Source: a phage. From it: a stretch of DNA of 64,000 bases. The position numbers and the translations under genes were made by a program. The DNA is taken from sequence record PZ445432.1. The stretch is one strand, 5' to 3'. Shown here piece by piece: positions 2,016 through 58,595 of this stretch (position 1 is its first letter; the number at the start of each line of letters is the position of its first letter). The notes beneath the pieces were generated by a model that was not told the DNA's origin, did not search any database, and saw only the letters and a list, made by a program, of their open reading frames with translations.

Positions 2016-3226
2016 TGGGTTTTAAAAGCTGGATTACTGAAAAGCTAAATCCGGGTCAACGTATTATAAGAGACATGGAACCAGTTAGTCATCGCACTAA
2101 CCGTAAGCCTTTTACCACTGGGCAAGCCTATAGCAAGATTGAGATTCTCAATCGAACTGCCAATATGGTTATAGATAGTGCGGCGGAGTGTTCTTATACT
2201 GTCGGAGATAAATATAATATTGTTACGTACGCTAATGGCGTCAAAACAAAGACTCTAGACACTCTCTTAAATGTACGACCTAATCCATTCATGGATATAA
2301 GCACATTCCGTAGACTTGTAGTCACTGACCTACTTTTTGAAGGTTGTGCATACATCTATTGGGATGGCACAGCACTTTACCACGTCCCGGCTGCTCTTAT
2401 GCAGGTCGAGGCAGATGCCAATAAGTTTATCAAAAAATTTACATTTAATAATCAGATAGACTATCGCGTAGATGAGATTATCTTTATAAAGGATAACAGT
2501 TACGTGTGTGGCACAAATTCTCAAATTTCTGGACAATCTCGTGTTGCTACTGTTATTGATTCTCTTGAGAAGCGTTCTAAGATGCTTAACTTTAAAGAGA
2601 AATTCCTCGATAACGGAACCGTGATTGGTCTTATTCTTGAGACGGATGAAATCCTGAACAAGAAATTGCGTGAGCGTAAACAAGAAGAATTACAACTCGA
2701 TTATAATCCTAGTACTGGTCAGTCTACTGTCCTGATTCTAGATGGTGGTATGAAAGCAAAACCGTACTCCCAAATATCCTCTTTTAAAGATCTAGACTTT
2801 AAGGAAGACATCGAAGGATTTAATAAATCCATCTGTCTTGCCTTTGGTGTTCCGCAAGTGTTACTTGATGGTGGTAATAATGCTAACATTCGACCAAACA
2901 TCGAATTGTTCTATTATATGACCATCATTCCTATGCTGAACAAACTGACTAGTTCTCTTACTTTCTTTTTTGGTTATAAGATCACTCCTAATACTAAGGA
3001 AGTCGCAGCATTAACACCAGATAAAGAAGCAGAGGCTAAACATTTAACCTCATTGGTTAATAATGGTATTATAACCGGTAACGAAGCTCGTTCAGAGCTG
3101 AACCTTGAGCCTTTAGATGATGAGCAGATGAATAAGATCCGTATTCCTGCTAACGTCGCTGGTTCTGCAACAGGTGTATCTGGTCAAGAAGGTGGTAGAC
3201 CTAAAGATTCCACCGAGGGAGATTAA
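2015..3226 (+). CDS. portal protein (pb7-like)
   Basis: 403-aa ORF directly after terminase/HNH; size and position match the T5 portal. Confidence 0.75.
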   Translation: MGFKSWITEKLNPGQRIIRDMEPVSHRTNRKPFTTGQAYSKIEILNRTANMVIDSAAECSYTVGDKYNIVTYANGVKTKTLDTLLNVRPNPFMDISTFRRLVVTDLLFEGCAYIYWDGTALYHVPAALMQVEADANKFIKKFTFNNQIDYRVDEIIFIKDNSYVCGTNSQISGQSRVATVIDSLEKRSKMLNFKEKFLDNGTVIGLILETDEILNKKLRERKQEELQLDYNPSTGQSTVLILDGGMKAKPYSQISSFKDLDFKEDIEGFNKSICLAFGVPQVLLDGGNNANIRPNIELFYYMTIIPMLNKLTSSLTFFFGYKITPNTKEVAALTPDKEAEAKHLTSLVNNGIITGNEARSELNLEPLDDEQMNKIRIPANVAGSATGVSGQEGGRPKDSTEGD

Positions 3227-20685: not shown

Positions 20686-21108
20686 ATGAGTACAGAAAAT
20701 AGAGTTATTGATTTAGTAGTAGATGAGAACGTACCTTATGGTTTACTTATGCAATTTATGGATGTAGATGATAGTGTTTATCCTGCTACATCTAAGCCAG
20801 TAGATCTTACTGGCTTCTCTCTTAGAGGAAGTATTAAAAGTAGCTTAGAAGACGAGGCTGAAACTTTAGCATCCTTTACCACTTCTATTGTGGATGCTAG
20901 ACAAGGTGTAGCGTCTATAAGTCTACCTGTTAGTGCTGTAACTACTATTGCTTCCAAAGCATCCAAAGAAAGAGATAGATATAACCCTAGACAGAGATTG
21001 GCTGGATACTATGATGTAATTATTACTAGAACAGCTGTTGGTAGTGCTGCTAGTTCTTTCCGTATTATGGAAGGCAAGGTTTATATTAGTGATGGAGTAA
21101 CTCAATAA
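20686..21108 (+). CDS. tail tip collar protein (p140/p132-like)
   Basis: 140-aa ORF between the pb4-like and fibre genes. Confidence 0.5.
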
Positions 21109-24100
21109 TGGCTATAACTAAAATAATTTTACAGCAAATGGTCACTATGGACCAGAATAGCATAACTGCTAGTAAGTATCCTAAGTATACTATAGTTCTG
21201 GGGAACACAATTAGCTCTATTACTGCTGCAGAACTAACCTCTGCTATAGAGTCTTCTAAAGCATCTGCAGCAGCAGCAAAAACCTCAGAAACTAATGCTA
21301 AGCAGTCAGAGTTAAATGCTAAAGGTTCTGAGAATGAGGCAAAAATTTCCGCAACATCTTCTCAACAATCTGCAACTCAGTCAGCTTCTTCTGCTACTGC
21401 TTCCGCTAACAGTGCTGGAGCTGCAAAAACTTCAGAAACCAATGCAAAAGCTAGTGAGACAGCTGCAAAAACTTCAGAAACCAATGCAAAAGCTAGTGAG
21501 ACAGCTGCTAAAACTTCAGAAACCCATGCAAAAGCTAGTGAGACTGCTGCAGCTGCCTCAGCCTCCGCAGCAAAAACCTCAGAAACTAATGCTGCTGCAT
21601 CTGCTTCTGCTGCTAAAACTTCAGAAACTAATGCTAATAATAGTAAAACTGCTGCTGCTAACAGTGCTAATGCTGCTAAAACCTCAGAAACTAATGCTAA
21701 AACATCAGAAACTAATGCGGCTGCTTCTGCCACAAGAGCTGAAAGTGTAGCTTCTGGTATGCGAGATTCTATAGGCCTGGGTAATTCAGCTCGTGATTGC
21801 CCAGATATTTCTGGTAATCCTTCTGCATACATTGGTTTTATGCGTATTCGTGAAGGTGTGCCTGGGTGGCCTTCTATTGCTAATGGGGAGGCGTATTTAA
21901 CTGGTGTTATTTCTGTTAATGACGGTTCTCCTTCCTACACTGGTATTTTTCATGGGTGGAATACTAGGTCACTTTATACGTATAGATGGTCCTCAAGTCT
22001 AGGTCCACAATGGACACGTCATGCTAGAAAAGATGAAGTTGATCGCCTTGTGCAAGGTTCGGGAGAATCTGCTATATGGGGTGCAGGCCGTAAACAAAAA
22101 CTTGTTCTATGGGATGGTGGCACAGGTGCAACAATGGATTGGGGTGTCTATGACGAAGCCGGAGCAAAGTGGATCCCACTGGGGGTTGGTAGAGGGGGTA
22201 CTGGTGCTACTACAGCAGCAGGAGCACGCACTAATTTACAACTAAACCGCTTCCAACGTTCTAGTGATACAAGAACCATCGTTTGCTCAACAGATGTTCA
22301 GGCGGATGGCTGTTACTTACAGGTTGATGCTGGTGGTCAGTGGGGCGCATTTAACCCTAAAACTGGTAGATGGCAACCTCTCGCAATAGCTCAGGGGGGC
22401 ACTGGAGGAGTTACCGCCGAGGACGCTCGTACAAATCTAGGACTAGGGCACAGCAGTTCTCCAACGTTTGGGCATTTACAGCTTCTTACTGAAAATGACT
22501 CTACACAAGCCTCTTCCGGAATACTTAGTCAGTTCCTACGAGATACTTCTGGAGCACAGAGAGCTCGTAGTAGGATTTACTCAGAAATACGTGGAGATAA
22601 TAAAGCTTGGTTGACACTACACCTACAATCTGATGCTAATACTAATAAATATGCTGGCTTAAGTATTGACGGTAATTTCCAGATAAACGGTAACTTTATT
22701 GGTAATGCTATAAGTTTATCGGATGTAGTCACTTCTAAAGTAAATCTACAGGTAAATAGGTTCGTACAGGCTACAGGTGAAACAGATGTAGTAAACCATG
22801 CCGGTACAGCGCAAATTTTTATTACAGATAATAAAAATTGGGGGGCGTATGATACAGAATTAAGAAGACATATAGCTCTACCTATAACTCAGGGTGGTAC
22901 TGGAGGCTTATCTATATCTGAGGCCAAAACAAATCTTCAGATACCTTCTGTAGGTGCTGGAGATTGGATGGAAATTGCAGCTCCTGCTGGTGTTGAAGCT
23001 GGGAAATATTACCCAATTGTAATTAACGCACAACATGCGGGTTTATATCTCTCTGGTTTCTTTATAGATATACAAACTAGAAGCTCCGGCGGGGGAGATC
23101 CTATGAACTGTTGTACGTTTAACGGGTTCATAAGAACAGGTGGTTGGTCGGATAGGAAAGACGCTGGCTATGGATACTATAACAGATATGATTCTAGTGA
23201 GCGTGCTTTAAAATGCATATTGGTATCCGCTAAGGATTCTGAAGACAATATAGCTGTATATGTAGAAGGTAGAGCATTCCCGGTGAAAATGCGCATACCT
23301 AAATTTTGCACAGCTACGGCGGTTGCTTCAGCTCATACGCATGGTCAAGTCACATTTGCCTGGGGTACACCCAATCCTGGTCCAGATTCAGTTGGGGTAA
23401 GGACTCTATTTGATTTCTCTTTAAATAGAGTTGGTTTCTACCAAGCAACAACAGAAGGAAACTATTACATAGGAAATGGTGAGCGTATAGTTCTTTCTAA
23501 TGGTATGAATGTGGGGGATGAACTAAGCTTAACCGCACCTAAGATTACTTTTAGTGGTACAGTGGCAGCTGGTAATGGTTTTACTGCAGATGGTACATCT
23601 GTATCCAATGCTACTTTTTATAGTCGTTATCGTGTCGGGAATACTGTTTACGGTGCGGAGTTCCTGGCCAGTGAGAATGCAGCCCAAGTTATTGTCAGAG
23701 ATCCGGCTGATACTAGCCATCAATTCTTTAACTTTAACCTCAACGGAACATTCAGTCCCCCAAATGGTTTATTGACTTCCACTGGTACGGACTGGAATGG
23801 GCAAAAGAATACTATCAATAAATTCTATGGGATTGCAGGAAGTGACAATGCTCCGGAAAATGCTATATATGGTGGTATCCATGTAGGGTTTAGCGGTAAT
23901 TATGCTACCCAATTTGCTGGCCGTAACTCCAAGTTTTGGGTAAGAAGTATTGAAGCGGGAGAAAATAAAGAATGGTTAAAGCTTATTACTGCTACATTAG
24001 CTCCTAAAATTCCTACGGATGCACGGGATGGTTTCATCAGTGATGCTTCTGCGGATACCTCTTGGGCACCTAGCAACGGTGGTGGTTTTCAGTCTTGTTA

Positions 24101-25232
24101 TGCCGAAAACCGCATTATGCAGAGCTGGGTTGATAATGTTGGAAGACTCTACAGTAGATTTCTAACAACTAATCAGCCTACAGCCCCAAAAACGGATGTT
24201 CCCTGGAAAAGTGCTGCGATGCTAGAGCTGGATAACCGCTTTACTGGTAATAATACTTTTCTTGGTAATCTTGAATCGACCAGGGATATAACTTGCGCAA
24301 GGTTGTTTAGTAAGGGGGCATTACAGACAGAAAGCGGAGGAATTGAGCTTTATCATTCCACACCATTTATTGACTTTCACTTTAATAAGGCAACAAGCGA
24401 CTACACGGCAAGGATTATCAACGACGCTGCTAATCAGCTAACTTTTGATTGTCAAAGTGTGCGTACGTTGCATGACTTCACAGCGTATGGACTTGTAAGG
24501 GGTTGTAACCGTGATGCATTCGTTGCATGGCCCATTAGCGATCCGTCTGCCAGCAATGGTCAGATTAGGCTTGCGCCTAAGTTCCAATCTCGATTTAATA
24601 GCGTAGGATCGAACGCATCTGGAGCTGCAAGAATGTCTATGTGGTTTGAGGAGCATGTTGGCTCTAACCATCGTGGTGTTGTAGAAGTCAGCGGCTATGG
24701 CTCTTCGACTCAATACTGGCACTTTAGAAATGATGGTGCTATCTGGAGTTCCGTTAAGGGGGACGTTGCGTGGGCTGGAACTTCTGATTTACGTTACAAA
24801 GATAACGTGGTTGATTACGATGGCTTGCAGTCCTTAGAAAACATCAAGGCGATGAACTTGATCAAGTTTACTTACAAGGATGATGATCGCAAGCGTGAGC
24901 GTCGAGGTGTTGCAGCACAGCAAATCATGGAAATTGATCCTTGCTATGTCAAAAAGAGCGAAGGCTCTTACATTGACGCCAACGGTGAGCAAGTAAACAT
25001 TGAAAAACTTGTGTTAGATACAAATCCGCTTTTGATGGATGCTCTTTGTGCAATCAAGGTGCTATCGGCCCAAGTAGGGGAGTTGAAAGAGGAAAATACT
25101 GCCTTACGTGCTGGCACCGCTAGCAGGGAGGAGCAAGTCACAGCCCTAGAATCAGAAGTATCTGATCTTAAAAAGCAAATTGCAGACCTAACGTTAGTGG
25201 TTAATTCTCTACTAGCAAATAAGGCACAGTAA
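21108..25232 (+). CDS. L-shaped tail fibre (pb1-like) with C-terminal intramolecular chaperone / autoproteolysis domain
   Basis: 1374 aa; N-terminal (AKTSETNAKASETA)n repeats; C-terminal TSDLRYKDNV autoproteolysis motif followed by a coiled-coil. Confidence 0.85.
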   Translation: MAITKIILQQMVTMDQNSITASKYPKYTIVLGNTISSITAAELTSAIESSKASAAAAKTSETNAKQSELNAKGSENEAKISATSSQQSATQSASSATASANSAGAAKTSETNAKASETAAKTSETNAKASETAAKTSETHAKASETAAAASASAAKTSETNAAASASAAKTSETNANNSKTAAANSANAAKTSETNAKTSETNAAASATRAESVASGMRDSIGLGNSARDCPDISGNPSAYIGFMRIREGVPGWPSIANGEAYLTGVISVNDGSPSYTGIFHGWNTRSLYTYRWSSSLGPQWTRHARKDEVDRLVQGSGESAIWGAGRKQKLVLWDGGTGATMDWGVYDEAGAKWIPLGVGRGGTGATTAAGARTNLQLNRFQRSSDTRTIVCSTDVQADGCYLQVDAGGQWGAFNPKTGRWQPLAIAQGGTGGVTAEDARTNLGLGHSSSPTFGHLQLLTENDSTQASSGILSQFLRDTSGAQRARSRIYSEIRGDNKAWLTLHLQSDANTNKYAGLSIDGNFQINGNFIGNAISLSDVVTSKVNLQVNRFVQATGETDVVNHAGTAQIFITDNKNWGAYDTELRRHIALPITQGGTGGLSISEAKTNLQIPSVGAGDWMEIAAPAGVEAGKYYPIVINAQHAGLYLSGFFIDIQTRSSGGGDPMNCCTFNGFIRTGGWSDRKDAGYGYYNRYDSSERALKCILVSAKDSEDNIAVYVEGRAFPVKMRIPKFCTATAVASAHTHGQVTFAWGTPNPGPDSVGVRTLFDFSLNRVGFYQATTEGNYYIGNGERIVLSNGMNVGDELSLTAPKITFSGTVAAGNGFTADGTSVSNATFYSRYRVGNTVYGAEFLASENAAQVIVRDPADTSHQFFNFNLNGTFSPPNGLLTSTGTDWNGQKNTINKFYGIAGSDNAPENAIYGGIHVGFSGNYATQFAGRNSKFWVRSIEAGENKEWLKLITATLAPKIPTDARDGFISDASADTSWAPSNGGGFQSCYAENRIMQSWVDNVGRLYSRFLTTNQPTAPKTDVPWKSAAMLELDNRFTGNNTFLGNLESTRDITCARLFSKGALQTESGGIELYHSTPFIDFHFNKATSDYTARIINDAANQLTFDCQSVRTLHDFTAYGLVRGCNRDAFVAWPISDPSASNGQIRLAPKFQSRFNSVGSNASGAARMSMWFEEHVGSNHRGVVEVSGYGSSTQYWHFRNDGAIWSSVKGDVAWAGTSDLRYKDNVVDYDGLQSLENIKAMNLIKFTYKDDDRKRERRGVAAQQIMEIDPCYVKKSEGSYIDANGEQVNIEKLVLDTNPLLMDALCAIKVLSAQVGELKEENTALRAGTASREEQVTALESEVSDLKKQIADLTLVVNSLLANKAQ
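21420..21545 (+). repeat. 3 x 42-bp in-frame tandem repeat inside the tail fibre gene, with degenerate copies spanning ~21270-21730
   Basis: unit gctgcaaaaacttcagaaaccaatgcaaaagctagtgagaca repeated head-to-tail at 21420, 21462 and 21504 (third copy has 3 substitutions). Confidence 0.9.
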
Positions 25233-25945: not shown

Positions 25946-26817
25946 TGTTTTGCAATCTCCAAAATATCTTTTGTAAGCTTATCTAATACGTCTTGACCTA
26001 CAGCAGCAATAGCATCCACACAGTAGGTAGGTAAATCAACCAGAATTAGGTTTCGGTAAAGCAATTCTTCCGAAGCATTTAAATTCTGTATATATTTCTG
26101 TTTTCCAGGTAGTGGGAGCTGATCAATAATATCCAGAACGTTACCAAATTCACGAATAATATTATACCCACGCTTTGCCCCAATACCTTCAACACCACGG
26201 ATATTATCCCCTAAATCGCCCATAATTGCTTTCAGAGAGATAAACTGCTCTACATCGTCAACATTATGATGCTCATACATATCACGAAGATGATATTCAC
26301 GACGTGTTGTGAAAGAGAAACGAGAAACTTTATCTGTTAATAAAGTATCCCAGTCACCATCGGTAGAAATTAGCCAAACGTGATCATAAAGATGACCAAT
26401 GAGCTTAACAATATAAGCTGCCATATCATCTGCTTCTACGCCACGAATGGTAAAAGTTGGGAATGTAGTTTCACACAACTCGAAAGCATCTTTCAAATAC
26501 TCAAAGAACTGTTCGTCCAGTGCTTTCTCTTCTTCTGTACGTTGTGCATACTTTTCATCACGATTACTTTTATACTCTGGTAGATGTTCTAGACGAAATA
26601 CAGATTTCCCCTTATCACCTAGAACAATCGTAGTTCTTGCGGAGTAGGATTTTGCTAAAGATTGAATAGTGGAAACATAACTTGAGGCAAATGGTTTCTT
26701 ACTATTATTGTGTTTGAATCGAAAGCCTAAGTTAGTTCCGTCTACAATCATTAGGTTACGACGGGAAGCCATTTCAGCTTCCTCTTCTTCAATAAATTTT
26801 CCCCAGGATTTACTCAT
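25942..26817 (-). CDS. flap endonuclease / 5'-3' exonuclease (T5 D15-like)
   Basis: 291 aa; LMIVDGTNLGFR N-terminal motif and overall FEN architecture. Confidence 0.85.
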   Translation of the reverse strand: MSKSWGKFIEEEEAEMASRRNLMIVDGTNLGFRFKHNNSKKPFASSYVSTIQSLAKSYSARTTIVLGDKGKSVFRLEHLPEYKSNRDEKYAQRTEEEKALDEQFFEYLKDAFELCETTFPTFTIRGVEADDMAAYIVKLIGHLYDHVWLISTDGDWDTLLTDKVSRFSFTTRREYHLRDMYEHHNVDDVEQFISLKAIMGDLGDNIRGVEGIGAKRGYNIIREFGNVLDIIDQLPLPGKQKYIQNLNASEELLYRNLILVDLPTYCVDAIAAVGQDVLDKLTKDILEIAKQ

Positions 26818-27299
26818 TATTTAATTAAGTCCTCAACAGATGCATGATGTAGCCACGGCTCAAATAAACCAATTACGATTTCCATGTCTTTCTTATTTAA
26901 CACCATATGGGTACGACTCATTAAGTTGTCAACCATCGGGTCTGAGCTATCCAAAGCTATTAACCACTGTCCTCTGTCTTTCTTGAATATTAATGCAGGT
27001 TTGGAGTTCATCTGCTCACCTTCACGTGAGCACTGCTGCCACCACTTCTCTAGAGTGGATTCACCAACATTAAATAAATTACTTGATATATTATCATCTT
27101 TATACCACTTAACTTCGAAGCAGTATTTACTAATGTGTCCGCTTTGTGGTGGAAGGTAGATGTCACCTTTCAGTCCGTGGCTCTGGCCAAAAGCACCAGA
27201 GCCAGGAACACGTTCCCACTCAAGACCTGTACGCTCACGTAGAATATCTCTTACCTGATATTCACCACGTTTACCTTTCTCTCTACTATCTACAGCCAT
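26817..27299 (-). CDS. D14-like protein, possible PD-(D/E)xK-type nuclease
   Basis: 160 aa; GEYQVRDIL...GDIY...FEVKW pattern compatible with a resolvase-type nuclease fold. Confidence 0.4.
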   Translation of the reverse strand: MAVDSREKGKRGEYQVRDILRERTGLEWERVPGSGAFGQSHGLKGDIYLPPQSGHISKYCFEVKWYKDDNISSNLFNVGESTLEKWWQQCSREGEQMNSKPALIFKKDRGQWLIALDSSDPMVDNLMSRTHMVLNKKDMEIVIGLFEPWLHHASVEDLIK

Positions 27300-27808
27300 T
27301 ATTCCTCTGGGAAATTTAATACTGCGAAATCTCCGAAGTATTCTTTTGCTTTAATATCATAGGCTCTGGCAGCCTCCTCTAGTGTATTAAAAGAACCTAA
27401 GTTCTCTCTAATACCAGTATTGGGATTCTTAATTCTAGCCCTGGGTTTACCGTCCCTACCGTTAGGGAAATCTAAACCCTTATATTTAGTAGTCTTAGAT
27501 CTAGAAGCTCTATTTTGGGCTTGCTGAGACTTAGAAGCATTACGTAAGTTACTCGGAGTATCATTTTGTCTATCCCTATCTTTATGATCTACTGAATCAG
27601 CCCAAGTACCATTAGTCATAAAGTAAATTAAGTCGTATACCCTATATTCTGTACCTTTAATACTTGTTCTATAATATCCGTCTTTCGACTGGGATCCGAC
27701 TCTCGATCCTTTCTTTGCTGATCCTACTGATTTTCTATGAAATAGAACACCGCCCCTAATTTCATATCTATCCTGTAGAAATTCTATAGTTATGTCTTGC
27801 TTTTTCAT
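27299..27808 (-). CDS. HNH-AP2 homing endonuclease
   Basis: VDHKDRDRQNDTPSNLR (HNH_3-type) plus C-terminal GSFNTLEEAARAYDIKAKEYFG, a close match to the AP2 DNA-binding motif. Confidence 0.8.
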   Translation of the reverse strand: MKKQDITIEFLQDRYEIRGGVLFHRKSVGSAKKGSRVGSQSKDGYYRTSIKGTEYRVYDLIYFMTNGTWADSVDHKDRDRQNDTPSNLRNASKSQQAQNRASRSKTTKYKGLDFPNGRDGKPRARIKNPNTGIRENLGSFNTLEEAARAYDIKAKEYFGDFAVLNFPEE

Positions 27809-29643
27809 TCTAAATAGGAAAATCCTTCTGCATCTTTTTTGACAGTAATCTTATGGGCCAGTGGGTGAGAGTGCCCATGAGAAACAATGATAGAATTTAG
27901 ACTTTCTTCCTCATTTAATAGTTCAATGAGAGTATCAAGCCCTTTCGTATCAATAAAGCTAATTACTTCATCAAGAAATAGAAGATTAATATTAACTTTA
28001 CTAATAGATGTTAACAGCATACGAATCGCTAACAGAGTTGCTAGATTAATTCGACTTTGCTGACCAGTAGAGCAGTTCTCCATACTGGTACGATTTCCAT
28101 CATTGAAGATTACTACTTGTAATTTTGTTTCATCAAGTTCAAATCCAAGTGCGAATTTACCGCCAGTCATAATAGAAAGATATTTATTAATTAGCTCTTC
28201 AAATACTTTCACGCTATGCTCTAGTTTATACCCTACTAGGTTCTTCAATGCAGCAATTAGAATATCGAGATCAGCTACAGCTTCGGCTACTCCATCAAGT
28301 TTGGAAGTAATCTCAGTCATTTCTGCTTCTGCTTTCTCAATCTGTTCTAGCTTTGCTTTATATTTTGCATTGGCTAATTCGACATTTGCATTATGCTCTT
28401 TGGCAACTGCAACCTTAGAACGTCCATCAGCGATTGCCTGTTCTAGTTGTCGGATTTGCACCTGTAGGTTTTGCACATTGAGTTCTTCAAAAGAAGCGTC
28501 ACTCATTGAATTTTTGAACTCGTCTCTAGCTGCCACTGCTTTATCCAAAGCATCCTTTGCTCTAATATACGCAACGTACTCAAGTTGTTCTTTCTTCAAC
28601 TGTTCTAGCCTAGCTTCAAGAGATTGCTTCTCTTTGAACAGAGGATCATATTCTATTCTAGCCATATCCATTGCTTTTTGAGCAGCAGTTGTATCCAGAT
28701 GAGTACCGCAAGTAGGGCATTCAGTATTTGAAGCCTCTTGCTTGAACTTCTGATAACGTTTCTTAACTTCGCTCGCACGTGAGGTCACAATCGTTAGGTC
28801 ACGCGTAACACTCGAGATCTCTTCATTTTGGTCGGTGGGCGCGGGCAAATTTTTGAAAGGTTCGAAAGATTGTTCGGCAACTTGTACAGCTTTGTCCAAA
28901 TTACGCAACTTAGTAATATTAGCCTCTTGAGACTTGGCTAATGCCGCCTTAATTTTCGATTCAGTAAGTTCTTGTGCTAATGGCTCTTCATCAAACTCCG
29001 GTACTTCTACAGGTTCCTGCAAAGTACCTAGATTATTTTTTCCATTAAGGATTTTCGTAATTACAGCCATCTGGCCCTGCAAATTATTTAAGGTATTTGC
29101 TATTTCTTTACGGTCAGCCTTAACAGTTTCCGACATTTCTTTGTACTGCTCTTGATTGAACAAGTTAACAAGAAAAGCCTTACGTGTTGCATCCGTTGCT
29201 TTTAGAAAATCTAGGTTGGAACCCACTGATTGATAAATCAGTTTGGTGAATGTTTGAAAGTCACCACCCATAATCTCTTCAATCATCTTATATGTTTGGG
29301 TTGCAGTGTGTCCACTAATATCTTCCCCATTCTTAATCAACGTTACTTTAGCAGTTGACTTAACTACTTTATGCAGCTCATACTCATCATCATCTTTTGA
29401 GAAGTAAGCGTGCATATCGTATTCTTTCTTAGGGGCATTCCAAGAGAACAATGCATCCTTCTTGATACCTCGAGAGTTCTTGTTATAAAACAACTCCTCG
29501 ATAACTGTAGCAATGGTGGATTTCCCTAGCCCATTGCCCCCAATTAGTTGAGTAACTGGATTCTTATCGAAATGGATTACGATGTCCTTACCGTAAGACA
29601 TAACGTTACTAAATTTTAGTGTCTTAATTGTAATCTTTGACAT
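27805..29643 (-). CDS. SbcC/Rad50-like recombination ATPase (T5 D13-like)
   Basis: Walker A GGNGLGKST, long coiled-coil, ECPTCGT zinc hook, C-terminal LLFLDEV signature; start placed at MSKITIK (the ORF extends to 29718). Confidence 0.8.
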   Translation of the reverse strand: MSKITIKTLKFSNVMSYGKDIVIHFDKNPVTQLIGGNGLGKSTIATVIEELFYNKNSRGIKKDALFSWNAPKKEYDMHAYFSKDDDEYELHKVVKSTAKVTLIKNGEDISGHTATQTYKMIEEIMGGDFQTFTKLIYQSVGSNLDFLKATDATRKAFLVNLFNQEQYKEMSETVKADRKEIANTLNNLQGQMAVITKILNGKNNLGTLQEPVEVPEFDEEPLAQELTESKIKAALAKSQEANITKLRNLDKAVQVAEQSFEPFKNLPAPTDQNEEISSVTRDLTIVTSRASEVKKRYQKFKQEASNTECPTCGTHLDTTAAQKAMDMARIEYDPLFKEKQSLEARLEQLKKEQLEYVAYIRAKDALDKAVAARDEFKNSMSDASFEELNVQNLQVQIRQLEQAIADGRSKVAVAKEHNANVELANAKYKAKLEQIEKAEAEMTEITSKLDGVAEAVADLDILIAALKNLVGYKLEHSVKVFEELINKYLSIMTGGKFALGFELDETKLQVVIFNDGNRTSMENCSTGQQSRINLATLLAIRMLLTSISKVNINLLFLDEVISFIDTKGLDTLIELLNEEESLNSIIVSHGHSHPLAHKITVKKDAEGFSYLE

Positions 29644-30601
29644 ATTTCGCAGCTCTAGCCAAGATTCTATCAATGTCGCCTTGAGATAGCTTCTCGACTT
29701 CACGGAAGTAAAGTTCAAGTTCGCCTAACATATCAAGATCAACAAGATTTAACTTAGCGTCTTTAGTAACTCGATGGTTAATCTTCTTATCTAATAAATC
29801 AGAGTCTTTGATAGACTTTAATTGAACAACGTCACCAGTAACTTCGTAGACTACACGATCATAATCACTAGGTTCCATCTCTTCACCTGCTCCGATTGTT
29901 TTACGAATCAGTTGTGGTAAATCACCTAGTTCAATCCATTCTACTTTTAATGTGTCGGTATCAATGATAAAGCAACCATTTGTACCTTTTGTGCGTTCTC
30001 TATGGAACGATGTAGTTAATGGAGATCCTGGGTAGAGGAGTCTAGTAGATCCGATAGTCTGGCTATTAGTATAAGAATGTAAATCGCCAGCAATTACAGT
30101 ATCATAACAGTTGTACTTAGTTAGATCGATTTCTGGTTTTACATGTGGTGGGATTTCACCACGAACATGCGTGAAACATAGTTTTGATTCAGCAGGTTTC
30201 CACTTGGGTTTATGAATCTCATCATACGGAACAATATCAAATTCAGGGGAACGATATGGTTTGGTAATTACTTCCCATTTCCCACTAGTTACTTTATTAA
30301 TAACCCCTGCGTAATGATATAGACATGAAATGGTTTTAGTTATTAATTCATGATTACCTGTAAATACCATTCCTATATGATCTAGCCTAGACATAAATTT
30401 TTCTAGAAGTTCTACTTCTTCCGACGACGGGTCGGAATGATCAAATAAATCACCACCAATAATATGCAAATCACAGTTATGATTATGGAATATATCATTT
30501 AGACGGTCTCCCAGCATTAAGAATCTTTTCTTCTGCCATTCTTTGGGAATTTTATCTTGCCCAAGTTTTATATGGTGATCAGCACTAAAGAGTATTTTCA
30601 T
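29624..30601 (-). CDS. SbcD/Mre11-like nuclease (T5 D12-like)
   Basis: calcineurin-like phosphoesterase motifs (SADHH, GDLFD, GNHE); 3' end overlaps the D13 start. Confidence 0.8.
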   Translation of the reverse strand: MKILFSADHHIKLGQDKIPKEWQKKRFLMLGDRLNDIFHNHNCDLHIIGGDLFDHSDPSSEEVELLEKFMSRLDHIGMVFTGNHELITKTISCLYHYAGVINKVTSGKWEVITKPYRSPEFDIVPYDEIHKPKWKPAESKLCFTHVRGEIPPHVKPEIDLTKYNCYDTVIAGDLHSYTNSQTIGSTRLLYPGSPLTTSFHRERTKGTNGCFIIDTDTLKVEWIELGDLPQLIRKTIGAGEEMEPSDYDRVVYEVTGDVVQLKSIKDSDLLDKKINHRVTKDAKLNLVDLDMLGELELYFREVEKLSQGDIDRILARAAKYVKDYN

Positions 30602-31128
30602 GATCTGGCAAATTCTCCGTGTAGTCGCCTACGTTCCCTATCAGCTACTACTTCTGCTTCTTGAATAGTATCATAATATCCAAAGTATTTTGTTTCTCCA
30701 TGGATTTTAAACTGAACCCTATACTTATGTCTCCCAGGTATCCAATATACATTTTTAACACCTGTGGTACTATTAGATCTTACGCTTGTGTTTCTTTCAT
30801 TACCTGATTTATTAGTTGGTCTTAGATTATTCCATCTATTGTTCTTCTTATCTAAGTCTTTGTGGTCTACTACTTCTGCCATTTCATTAGTCTGCATGGC
30901 ATAAATAATTAAATGTACAAGATACTGCTCATTATTAAATGAGGTTCTTAAATACCCTTTTCCATTATCCGTGCCTACTATAGATCCTGCTAACTGACCA
31001 CCCGTTCCTACTTTCCTAGAGAGTAGACCGGACTCAGGATCATAGGAAAATCTTTCTCTGAATTTATTTACTAATAAAATGAATTTTTTAGGGTCTTCCA
31101 AAAATAAGGAATATAGCTTATTTCTCAT
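30598..31128 (-). CDS. HNH-AP2 homing endonuclease
   Basis: VVDHKDLDKKNNRWNNLR plus C-terminal KYFGYYDTIQEAEVVADRERRRLHGEFA AP2-like motif. Confidence 0.75.
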   Translation of the reverse strand: MRNKLYSLFLEDPKKFILLVNKFRERFSYDPESGLLSRKVGTGGQLAGSIVGTDNGKGYLRTSFNNEQYLVHLIIYAMQTNEMAEVVDHKDLDKKNNRWNNLRPTNKSGNERNTSVRSNSTTGVKNVYWIPGRHKYRVQFKIHGETKYFGYYDTIQEAEVVADRERRRLHGEFARS

Positions 31129-37795: not shown

Positions 37796-39258
37796 ATATC
37801 GCTGGCCTGTTCACCTGTTGAATTTTCAGTTTTATCTTTCTTAGCACGTTTAGATTGAGCTGGCTTATCCTTTTCAATAGGGATAATGAACTCAGCTTCC
37901 ATTTGAGATATATCTTCCATTGCTAGGTTGGTAGTGTTATCCATCCGCAGAGTTTCCCAGTTCATCTTAGGCATAAACTTCACGCTACCAGAAGAACGGG
38001 TCTTAACGAAGTCAAACATAATAGCACCTTGACCATTATCAGCTTTTGCAGCATTAAGATTAGCAGCCATGTCTGCGGAATCAAGAATCCCCTTTGACAT
38101 ACGTGTTCTACCATCTTGATCGATCTGGTAAGGAGCTACGCCAGCCACGTTATGTTTCTGGCAGATAGATTTGAAAGACGAGCTAACAACCATCTGTTCT
38201 TTCCAGTCATACATATCAATGGTTTTAGAATCTGGAAGTCGGGTTTGGTTAATATAGTCAAGTAAAGCTACTGTAACCTTATCCCCATATCTAGCAACTA
38301 ATTTATTTAACTCTACGTCAACTGTTGTAATAGACAGCTCAGGGTCATAAACAATAATCATAGGAGTATGTAGCTCATATCCTTCTATTAGCTTACTTTC
38401 CATATCGTAGAAATCACTCATCTTAGCCATTGTGTACTGTTTAACGAAGTTATCGAAAAGCTCTTCACCACCATTAAACATTCTAGCTCTAGTTCTGGCT
38501 AATCTCAACAGAGCTGCACCTTCTAGAGTATTATTACGCATTGCTAATGCTGATACACCAGCTAACATGGCTAGATTACGTCTAAATACTTCATGTTCTT
38601 TCATCTCAATTGAGAAGTATGGAGCAATATCCCCATTCAAATATTGCTGAACCTGTATGTTTGAACAGATAATGGATTTACCAGTACCACGCCAACCACC
38701 AAGCAGTAACGTTTCTGTGCGAGCTAAACCAATTTGAGCGTCGAACTCATTACAAATACCAAGAGCGATTAAATTCAGTTTGGTATCTTCTTCTCTCTGG
38801 AAAATACGCATGTTATCTGCGTTGAATACTTTCCCAGTATTCGTTACTTTCTCTTCTAATTTTAAGTGAAGGGAGGCAACTCGGTTAAGAATTTCTCCCT
38901 GATCCAGCATTGTTAAATCTTGAAGCACGTCTGTTTCTAGAAGCTTCAGGAATAAATCCTGTGTATACTCGGCCTCTAGGACTTCAAGTGCCTGTTCCAT
39001 GCTAACTTCTGGAATTTGAGTGTTAGCTAAAACGACTAGAGCTTGAGAAAGGCGGGCGTTCCTATTAGCCTCAAGCATCAGTGCGTCAATGGACGGCATT
39101 GTGTTATATTTTTTATAATAATTCTGGACGGCTTGGTAAATTGAGGAGAAAGCGTCATTAAAATGATCTTTATGCAGTTTTGAGAATGTTTCCAATGCTA
39201 TTTGCTTCTGTTCGGAAGCTAGAAGCATCTTCAACACTACAGCTTGCACGTTAAACAT
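37792..39258 (-). CDS. replicative DNA helicase (DnaB-like)
   Basis: 488 aa; Walker A GGWRGTGKS and RecA-like C-terminal domain. Confidence 0.8.
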   Translation of the reverse strand: MFNVQAVVLKMLLASEQKQIALETFSKLHKDHFNDAFSSIYQAVQNYYKKYNTMPSIDALMLEANRNARLSQALVVLANTQIPEVSMEQALEVLEAEYTQDLFLKLLETDVLQDLTMLDQGEILNRVASLHLKLEEKVTNTGKVFNADNMRIFQREEDTKLNLIALGICNEFDAQIGLARTETLLLGGWRGTGKSIICSNIQVQQYLNGDIAPYFSIEMKEHEVFRRNLAMLAGVSALAMRNNTLEGAALLRLARTRARMFNGGEELFDNFVKQYTMAKMSDFYDMESKLIEGYELHTPMIIVYDPELSITTVDVELNKLVARYGDKVTVALLDYINQTRLPDSKTIDMYDWKEQMVVSSSFKSICQKHNVAGVAPYQIDQDGRTRMSKGILDSADMAANLNAAKADNGQGAIMFDFVKTRSSGSVKFMPKMNWETLRMDNTTNLAMEDISQMEAEFIIPIEKDKPAQSKRAKKDKTENSTGEQASDI

Positions 39259-39832
39259 TATTTAGCAACTCCTCTGTAAAGTTATCCGCTATATTCTGCG
39301 GTTTAACCCTCTCTATATCTAGAGCATCTAGGGCTGCGAAATCTCCGTACAAGGCTAAAAGCAGCTTATCTCTATACCACAGAGCTTCTCCTAGAGTTTT
39401 TAGGGTTTTTCTAAATACTTTGGAGTTTTTAGATATGGTTACTTTAAATGTGTTATTTTTTGTTACTTCTATGTTACGAATGCCTAGCTTGTTACCTATA
39501 AAGCTATTAGCGGAATTTTGAGAGGAAGTAACTTCACGTAAGTTATTCCAAGTATTATCAGTTTTAATTCTATTTTTATGATCAACCTTGTCAGGGATTT
39601 CTCCTTCCATATATAGAAAGGCCCACCTATGCGCTCCCATAGATTTTTGTATACCTGACTCTAAGGTTATCTTTATGTAAATATAGCCTGATGAATGCAT
39701 ATAGCCTGCAGGTTTGTTAGCGTGCTTAGCATTGAACGCAGGATTATTTTCTCTAGGTAGCCAGTAGAAATTTCCAGTATCAGGCTCATATCTTAATAAT
39801 GTTTTAAGATACTGCTGGGTAATCTCCCCCAT
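39251..39832 (-). CDS. HNH-AP2 homing endonuclease
   Basis: VDHKNRIKTDNTWNNLR plus a C-terminal AP2-like segment. Confidence 0.7.
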   Translation of the reverse strand: MGEITQQYLKTLLRYEPDTGNFYWLPRENNPAFNAKHANKPAGYMHSSGYIYIKITLESGIQKSMGAHRWAFLYMEGEIPDKVDHKNRIKTDNTWNNLREVTSSQNSANSFIGNKLGIRNIEVTKNNTFKVTISKNSKVFRKTLKTLGEALWYRDKLLLALYGDFAALDALDIERVKPQNIADNFTEELLNNV

Positions 39833-48195: not shown

Positions 48196-48791
48196 AACAA
48201 TACTCCTGTGTTGGAAATGAAATAAGTTTTCTTTAGGACTATTCAGAAAGAATAGAACAACTGTTACTGTCAATTTCTCAACAATTAATCGCAAATACTG
48301 AAGTGGGGTGGCAACTTCCACTTTCACGCTGCGCTGCTGCCTCATTATACCGCACAAATCCTTGAGGATGGCCGCTAAGCCGGATTTGCTCACCTAATGC
48401 TTCATATACTAGCTCATACTAGATGCAATATAACTTACAGAATCACGTCTCGGTAGTTTTTCACTCCTCCCATCTCACTTCACAACCACCTCATACTAGG
48501 TTGCTTCGAGGCCTTACCAGGGTTCCTATGGGACGCAGATCGCTAAGTATTCTATTAACTATTTGTTTAAAAACTAACACGTAACAGTTAAAACAACCCT
48601 TAATGGGGCAGCCTAACTGTTCCGTATCGCGGATTGTAAACAAGAAAAAACTTTTTCGTAAAGCTCTAGCAACGTACCTTATGCAGCTATTTACGGGTCA
48701 TCGATTCCTCTCGCCGTAAATCCATTGTCAGCTTCACTAAGAAAAATTAGCAAAATCAATTTTTACTAATGTCTCTCAATTCAATATAAAT

Positions 48792-48820
48792 ATTATAGCA
48801 AGATTTTGAGCATCATGCAA
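48792..48820 (-). promoter_or_regulatory. early promoter TTGCAT-17-TATAAT
   Basis: hexamers read on the minus strand; about 600 nt upstream of the helicase start. Confidence 0.55.
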
Positions 48821-48896
48821 GTAAATTTTTAAGGAGAATGCTATCAGTGTCTTTGAGCACAGTGAAAACCGAGCCAAAATGACTCGGTTATGTGGA

Positions 48897-49091
48897 TTAG
48901 ACACTTAAAATACTTCTAATCTCTTCTATATACTTATCTACTTTTTTAGCATCTATTTTACTTAGTTTTCCTATATCAAAATCAGGATCAGTCAAATATC
49001 TTGCCATAAATTTTACTTGTTTAGCTGAAAGTTGACCCTTATTCCACTTTTTAATTTTACCATAACATACCCAATATTCTTTATTCATCAT
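48897..49091 (-). CDS. hypothetical small Lys-rich protein
   Basis: 64-aa ORF. Confidence 0.35.
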   Translation of the reverse strand: MMNKEYWVCYGKIKKWNKGQLSAKQVKFMARYLTDPDFDIGKLSKIDAKKVDKYIEEIRSILSV

Positions 49092-58079: not shown

Positions 58080-58595
58080 TTGATAACACAAGATGAATTA
58101 AAAAGGATTCTGGAGTATAATCCAGATGAAGGAACATTTACTTGGTTAAATAACCAGGAAGTACACAATAAAGTAAGGGGACTACCTGCTGGCTGTTTAA
58201 AACCCCACTCAGTAGATCCTAACCGAAAAGACTTAGTAATACAAATCAAGGGTAAGAAGTATCCCGCACAAAATATTGCTTTCCTGTACATGACAGGAAA
58301 CTTACCTAAAGTTATGGTTGACCATATAGATGGAGATTCACTAAACTATAAGTGGGCTAATCTAAGAGAAGCAGACTGGCAGTTAAATAGTCAAAATAGA
58401 AAAACTAGTAAAAACAATATATTGGGTACTAAGAATATTCGGAAGAAAGGGTCTGGATTTCAAGTTAGAAAATCCATTAACGGAAAAGAATATGTGAAAA
58501 CTCTCCCAACTCTAGAAGAGGCGATAGAGTATCGAGATTCTTTAATCCTCTCTATAACCAAAGATCCAACACTACTTAGAAACACAGATAAATAG
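58080..58595 (+). CDS. HNH-AP2 homing endonuclease between nrdA and nrdB (TTG start)
   Basis: VDHIDGDSLNYKWANLR plus C-terminal VKTLPTLEEAIEYRDSLI AP2-like segment; AAGGAG 8 nt upstream of TTG. Confidence 0.75.
   Translation: MITQDELKRILEYNPDEGTFTWLNNQEVHNKVRGLPAGCLKPHSVDPNRKDLVIQIKGKKYPAQNIAFLYMTGNLPKVMVDHIDGDSLNYKWANLREADWQLNSQNRKTSKNNILGTKNIRKKGSGFQVRKSINGKEYVKTLPTLEEAIEYRDSLILSITKDPTLLRNTDK

Follow-up and report, generated by a model that had tools for sequence, protein, structure and literature searches.

The nuclease I-HmuI of Bacillus phage SPO1 (structure 1u3e), an intron-encoded nicking enzyme of 174 residues, consists of an N-terminal DNA-binding sheet followed by a beta-beta-alpha-metal core of the Pfam HNH_3 family and a C-terminal helix-turn-helix; its catalytic and metal-binding residues are D74, H75, N87 and N96, the last of which is a metal ligand. 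In the classification of His-Me finger nucleases, I-HmuI and the HNH-AP2 nucleases both belong to group 2 (PMC5714182). The HNH-AP2 architecture defines an established family of homing endonucleases from phages, cyanobacteria and ciliates (Magnani et al. 2004, cited through PMC10448857), and its phage genes adjoin essential replication or recombination genes. In the ‘IPA-HNH’ proteins gp59 and gp209 of ICP1, an N-terminal HNH domain too divergent to be detected by Pfam HNH_3 is combined with a C-terminal AP2 domain (PMC10448857). The AP2/ERF proteins of plants, by comparison, are transcription factors that contain the same sheet-plus-helix fold without a nuclease.

Among the phages related to T5, homing endonuclease genes are considered the main contributor to genome differences (PMC10644984). 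F-TflI and F-TflII of T5 are HNH proteins that have been characterised as site-specific endonucleases (Akulenko 2004, as cited in PMC2330249 and PMC10644984). Like the Seg and Mob enzymes of T4, they are encoded by free-standing, variably present genes that lie between conserved genes and are inherited with flanking markers (PMC2330249, PMC10644984).

Here, we analyze a related gene, bas33_0028, from a window comprising a whole 64,000-nt stretch of phage DNA (sequence record PZ445432.1), in which the 2.5 kb at this gene are 100% identical to Escherichia phage HildyBeyeler (Bas33, MZ501074; Demerecviridae, Tequintavirus). The initial annotation had called an HNH-AP2 homing endonuclease gene at this position, wedged between D14 and an SbcC-like gene (D13) and overlapping both. 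The boundaries that it gave are exact (a minus-strand reading frame for 169 aa), and both overlaps can be read from the sequence: the ATG of bas33_0028 overlaps the stop codon of D13 by 4 nt (ATGA, 27805–27808), and its TAA overlaps the ATG of D14 by 1 nt (TAATG, 27297–27301). The protein is assigned to phrog_99 of the PHROGs collection (“HNH endonuclease”, E 1e-43), while the neighbouring genes of HildyBeyeler are labelled “recombination nuclease subunit 2” (D13) and “endonuclease” (D14) in GenBank. The true start of D13 is uncertain: the mechanically called reading frame begins at a TTG and overlaps D12 by 95 nt (29624–29718), the GenBank entry for HildyBeyeler uses 29703, and the D13 annotated in T5 is 20 codons shorter. 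The features discussed below are listed in Table 1.

Table 1. Features of the bas33_0028 locus and the other HNH_3 reading frames, in window coordinates
Feature	Position	Strand	Description and basis
bas33_0028, type A gene (169 aa)	27299–27808	-	ORF; GenBank ‘putative homing endonuclease’; PHROG
D13, SbcC/Rad50-like recombination nuclease subunit	27805–29703	-	Upstream neighbour, holds candidate target; Pfam AAA_15, AAA_23, SbcC_Walker_B; annotation
D14, PDDEXK-type endonuclease	26817–27299	-	Downstream neighbour; Pfam PDDEXK_15, E 1.8e-47; annotation
N-terminal beta-rich region, residues 1–56	27641–27808	-	Equivalent of the I-HmuI N-terminal DNA-binding sheet; phmmer, AlphaFold, Foldseek
HNH_3 (beta-beta-alpha-metal) core, residues 60–97	27518–27631	-	Pfam; alignment to 1u3e; D74-H75, N87, N99
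AP2/ERF-type DNA-binding domain (predicted), residues 103–169	27302–27502	-	phmmer against PDB; Foldseek
Shared 3'-terminal 67 nt	27299–27365	-	Codon alignment, megablast; probable recombination joint
GAGGA, Shine-Dalgarno-like	27303–27307	-	Last codons CCA GAG GAA TAA (P-E-E), 3 nt upstream of D14 ATG
Substitution patch, candidate target/immunity site	27856–27871	-	D13 codons H-[T/S]-H-P-L-A; 52–67 nt from insertion point
HNH_3 ORF bas33_0031	30598–31128	-	Between D12 (SbcD-like) and SSB gene; ‘putative homing endonuclease’
HNH_3 ORF	39251–39832	-	Between replicative helicase and DNA-binding protein genes; ‘putative homing endonuclease’
HNH_3 ORF	58080–58595	+	Between ribonucleotide reductase alpha and beta subunit genes; ‘putative homing endonuclease’

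We determined that bas33_0028 joins an I-HmuI-like nuclease half to a DNA-binding half of the AP2/ERF fold. An N-terminal HNH_3 motif had been proposed for the protein, and a search with the Pfam model (PF13392) bears this out, with a match to the core that passes the gathering cut-off (29.1 bits, cut-off 24.8 bits; E 7.9e-7). Furthermore, residues 28–106 align by phmmer with residues 21–106 of I-HmuI, including the VDHKD...NLR motif. An AlphaFold2 model built on an alignment of 25 sequences (pLDDT 89.3, pTM 0.75) contains strands at residues 15–18, 21–24, 46–50 and 53–56 in the N-terminal region, and two strands (73–75 and 88–90) and a helix (93–100) in the beta-beta-alpha-metal core. Foldseek matches this model to 1u3e with a probability of 1.00 (E 1.8e-3), although differing domain orientations make the whole-chain rmsd poor. 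The family alignment of 25 homologs shows no variation at H75 and a conservation of at least 90% at D74, N87, R89 and N99. The residue of bas33_0028 that aligns with N96 of I-HmuI is Q96; a glutamine occupies this position in all type A copies (i.e., orthologs with at least 90% amino acid identity) and in three other homologs of the alignment.

The claim of a C-terminal plant-type AP2 motif also held, on the strength of comparisons with solved structures and despite a Pfam AP2 (PF00847) score below threshold (14.4 bits, cut-off 33.3 bits; only the helix is matched, model positions 31–52). We did not take this low score as evidence that the domain is absent, because clear matches came both from the solved AP2 structures and from the fold search. 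Using phmmer, residues 103–169 matched the plant AP2/ERF domains of WRI1 (7wq5, E 2.3e-10, residues 103–166), ERF096 (5wx9, E 8.4e-6), TEM1 (7et4, E 1.4e-4) and AtERF1 (1gcc, E 1.7e-4), with 39–45% identity over about 60 residues, and the motif quoted in the initial annotation, LGSFNTLEEAARAYD, aligns with LGTFDTAEEAARAYD of ERF096. The best PDB matches of the model in Foldseek are AP2 domains, followed by I-HmuI; superposition on 1gcc gave a TM-score of 0.80 (target-normalised), an rmsd of 1.6 Å and 43% identity. The C-terminal half of the model is a three-stranded antiparallel sheet (strands at about 111, 123–127 and 134–139) packed on a helix (143–161), and the AP2 signature is clear in the 25-sequence alignment (K/R-G-V ... 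A-x-I ... L-G-x-F-x-T-x-E-E-A-A-R-A-Y-D ... F-G-E-F-A-V-L-N-F). In phmmer alignments inspected by eye, an asparagine of bas33_0028 takes the place of the tryptophan in the plant WLG motif (ENLGSF as compared with VWLGTF), so that specificity for the GCC box is not expected. Among the 30 homologs retrieved from the protein database, 17 contain both PF13392 and PF00847.

Thus, bas33_0028 resembles I-HmuI in nuclease family, in the order of N-terminal sheet and metal-binding core and roughly in size, but it is free-standing rather than intron-encoded, has an AP2 domain in place of the helix-turn-helix and differs at the N96 position. It shares the domain order of gp59 and gp209; unlike these ICP1 proteins, it is recognised by Pfam HNH_3, and its AP2 domain falls below the Pfam threshold. 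As with other HNH-AP2 phage genes, its neighbours are recombination genes. F-TflI, F-TflII and the Seg and Mob enzymes agree with it in being free-standing and in their placement and variable occurrence, although they occupy other loci (the tRNA region and nrd genes) and use other DNA-binding modules, SegB being a GIY-YIG enzyme (PMC2330249). The HNH-AP2 class has been described since 2004 and GenBank already annotates bas33_0028 as a putative homing endonuclease; the gene is therefore a correctly recognised, predicted member of a known family. In the literature that we searched, we found no characterised HNH-AP2 member at the D13/D14 junction of T5.

The initial annotation had further counted four paralogs in the window. 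Four HNH_3 reading frames are indeed present, all of them annotated as putative homing endonucleases, and a strong AP2 match is found only in bas33_0028. The closest paralog is bas33_0031 (phmmer E 1.3e-19), whose AP2-like C-terminus is degenerate; as T5 has only terminators between D12 and the SSB gene, bas33_0031 is an optional insert as well. The three other reading frames gave no significant AP2 match when compared with solved structures; they can be aligned across the AP2 region only by profile comparison, which succeeds for two of them, or in the family alignment. The mobE gene of T-even phages occupies the same kind of position as the reading frame at 58080–58595, between ribonucleotide reductase subunit genes.

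In T5, the D13 stop codon (TAA) and the D14 ATG are separated only by AAC, and the insert in HildyBeyeler consequently amounts to a net 502 bp. The boundaries of the insert were determined manually, with tblastn coordinates as confirmation; the gap placement in a MAFFT pairwise alignment of the HildyBeyeler and T5 junctions was wrong and was overruled by the hand reading. The presence/absence comparison of related genomes that had been proposed for this junction revealed a polymorphism. Among about 447 phage records that match the region, 21 contain a type A ortholog, always at the D13/D14 junction, and these carriers span both Tequintavirus and Epseptimavirus. A second HNH-AP2 gene with 46% amino acid identity to type A, which we refer to as type B, occupies the same junction in 14 further records. 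T5 and about 92% of the records have no gene there. Their empty junctions have spacers of 2–4 nt, nearly all of 3 nt, and D13 and D14 are full length with or without the insert. In an independent sample of 51 IMG/VR loci with D14 relatives, D13 and D14 remain adjacent down to about 40% identity; among the 28 close relatives in this sample the junction is empty in 26, with type A and type B found in one each. The gene is thus an insert that is optional and confined to a single junction, and an ortholog in all relatives lacking motif support, which would have spoken against the initial annotation, is not what the records contain.

In distant Demerecviridae, the same junction contains other inserts. 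Judged by eye, one of them encodes a further HNH endonuclease whose C-terminus is different (locus L038, 2474–3004), and the remainder include a methyltransferase-like reading frame of 241 residues, a thioredoxin-like reading frame and small reading frames (L050, 2137–2862; L051/L052, 2601–3017; L035, 2712–3005; L046, 2781–3005). Such unrelated reading frames indicate that the junction is permissive to insertion without homing.

Pairwise comparison of nine type A orthologs, all of them full length, yielded dN/dS ratios of about 0.1 (mean 0.11, median 0.09), so that the gene is under purifying selection. Its genealogy is discordant with that of its flanks. In the pair of loci L054 and L057, the genes are 98.6% identical and the flanks 87–91%; in L054 and L055, the genes are 91% identical and the flanks 96–97%. 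The flanks of HildyBeyeler itself are closest to those of the gene-free T5 (distal D13 97.4%, D14 99.4%).

Downstream of the insert, three carriers, JLBYU43 (L060, type A), SHSML-45 (L026) and phA11 (L061), the latter two type B, have 32–36 bases in the ~195 nt at the start of D14 that are private relative to 29 gene-free genomes. The tract is partly present in a fourth carrier, polluks (L058), with seven private bases in the first 35 nt of D14. Its identity to T5 is 77–78%, the encoded residues are typical of distant Demerecviridae, and common-pool sequence lies beyond it. The D14 of HildyBeyeler is without a private 5' tract. The tracts of the four carriers look like co-conversion tracts of varying length, imported together with the gene.

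Outside their 3' ends, the type A and type B genes share only about 50% nucleotide identity. The last 67 nt, in contrast, are 100% identical between HildyBeyeler and phA11 and 96–100% identical across carriers, which suggests that the two types exchange by recombination within the locus. A search of 50,697 phage records for an 82-nt 3' end returned the 35 carriers of type A or type B and no others; given this confinement to the D13/D14 junction, we rejected the idea that the 3' module is a handle common to endonuclease genes elsewhere. The GAGGA in the last codons of the insert may serve as a Shine-Dalgarno-like sequence for D14, and T5 has no GAGGA-type motif adjoining its D14 ATG. From this arrangement we infer a recombination joint that would at the same time preserve translation of D14. 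The type B genes lie at 2300–2791 of locus L061 (phA11) and at 2510–3001 of locus L026 (SHSML-45), and Shivani is a further type B carrier; the gene of phA11 starts with ATGGCT, which is also the first six bases of D14, so that this hexamer flanks the insert on both sides.

No convincing promoter or terminator was found at bas33_0028, the counts being at or near shuffled expectation. There is likewise no RNA hairpin over the start codon of the kind seen in some T4 endonuclease genes, and shuffled versions of the region are predicted to be more stable than the region itself (z +1.6).

Within D13, HildyBeyeler and T5 differ at seven positions in 16 nt, the densest cluster of differences in the gene (permutation P 4.5e-4). 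This patch directly follows the ABC-ATPase H-loop motif VSHGH and reads CAT ACG CAT CCA TTA GCT in T5. Its second codon is TCT or TCC in all nine type A and both type B genomes that were examined (TCT in HildyBeyeler), accompanied by further synonymous changes. By contrast, the 401 records with 95% or more identity to the T5 67-mer are all gene-free; records with such T5-like alleles cannot be carriers, because each carrier allele differs at four or more positions. Other patch alleles occur in 43 records, 35 of which are carriers. The ACG allele is found in no carrier. The association is one-sided, in that no carrier has the T5-type allele, yet some gene-free phages have a serine codon in the patch: H8 has TCC, as in type A and type B carriers, and Spc35 and Th1 have TCG. 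The two latter phages rule out a perfect association of threonine or serine with gene status.

The link between patch and carriage could partly reflect plain linkage. A polymorphic site at -10, nearer the insert, is less well associated with carriage than the patch, which argues for selection at the patch over mere linkage. The patch is a likely target and immunity site: the T5-type sequence would be recognised by the enzyme and the recoded alleles would be immune. The gene-free recoded alleles could stem from conversion tracts that ended short of the gene.

A further feature of D13 is the 41-nt site of the ‘major DNA single-chain interruption’ of T5 (GGGCGCGGG context), which is 100% conserved in HildyBeyeler (about 28819–28859) and lies about 1 kb from the endonuclease gene. 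We considered and rejected a link between bas33_0028 and the genomic nicks of T5; as T5 has the nick without having the gene, the two are unrelated.

Taken together, these data make it likely that bas33_0028 belongs to the free-standing homing endonuclease genes of HNH (I-HmuI/HNH_3)-AP2 type and has been inserted precisely into the 3-nt spacer between D13 and D14. Homing itself, i.e., the cutting of gene-free alleles and the resulting biased inheritance, is suggested by the comparative patterns. The gene, which has no promoter or terminator of its own, is probably transcribed with the early D12-D13-D14 operon and translated at a low level via the ATGA overlap. In a mixed infection with a gene-free relative, the AP2 domain and the N-terminal sheet would bind within the 3' end of D13; the T5-type patch, 52–67 nt from the insertion point, is the best candidate for the site. 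The single HNH site would then nick or cut at this D13 site, and repair of the break by recombination from the carrier genome would copy the gene together with short flanking tracts. We propose that the recoded patch in the D13 of carrier genomes, with its TCY serine codon and neighbouring synonymous changes, protects these genomes.

Some of the same observations could be accommodated by a decaying or catalytically dead relic that is moved passively by ordinary homologous recombination of the operon. Such a relic would explain why every type A copy has a glutamine at the position of the I-HmuI metal ligand and why only about 8% of the records have a gene at the junction, and the acceptance of unrelated inserts by this junction in distant relatives fits passive movement as well. 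However, all nine examined orthologs have remained full length with a dN/dS of about 0.1, and D74, H75, N87 and N99 are intact; the glutamine recurs in three other members of the family, and genes that are 98–99% identical across flanks of only 87–93% identity fit a recent active spread. We therefore regard the relic as improbable. Slightly less probable still is a protein domesticated for the benefit of the phage, be it as an AP2-type regulator of the operon or as a nuclease weapon for the exclusion of co-infecting relatives, copying of the gene then being only a side effect. Purifying selection, the GAGGA that the insert provides beside the D14 start and the role of plant AP2 domains in transcription factors would all suit domestication, and co-option of homing endonuclease domains by phages has been documented (PMC10448857). 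On the other hand, the gene is dispensable, given that T5 and about 92% of its relatives do without it, and the nuclease motif has been kept. As the weapon would operate by the same molecular mechanism as homing, it differs from the latter in evolutionary framing only.

That bas33_0028 is no real gene but a chance reading frame in an intergenic insert is hardly conceivable: nothing beyond its small size speaks for this, whereas two independent domain matches, a confident fold prediction, 30 homologs and the low dN/dS ratio all speak against it.

Within the homing interpretation, we tentatively put forward a more specific model, to which we assign somewhat less than even confidence. The D13/D14 junction of T5-like phages may house a two-allele homing system, in which two HNH-AP2 endonucleases with 46% identity swap their fronts across a shared, locus-specific 67-nt 3' module that would also provide the ribosome-binding site of D14. 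Both types would be linked to one recoded patch, situated directly behind the H-loop codons of the SbcC-like gene at about 60 nt from the insertion point, and H8, Spc35 and Th1 would represent resistant ‘escapee’ alleles, derived from tracts that stopped short of the gene.

Since the family is known, the value of the present analysis lies mainly in good annotation; the candidate target patch in D13 and the arrangement of two alleles with a shared 3' module appear to be mildly new elements. D13 of T5 offers a concrete candidate target, for which putatively sensitive and resistant alleles occur naturally among sequenced phages, and the junction provides an example of two diverged endonuclease alleles at one site with one 3' module. 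Additionally, the plant-like AP2 domain could serve studies on the evolution of AP2 specificity or the design of site-specific nickases.

Two additional observations concern other parts of the window. In its N-terminal part, the lateral tail fibre protein (21108–25232, plus strand) contains a long run of imperfect peptide repeats of the ‘AAKTSETNAKASE’ type. A stretch of about 885 bp (about 48196–49080) that separates bas33_0050, the large DNA primase gene, from bas33_0051 is without a GenBank feature.
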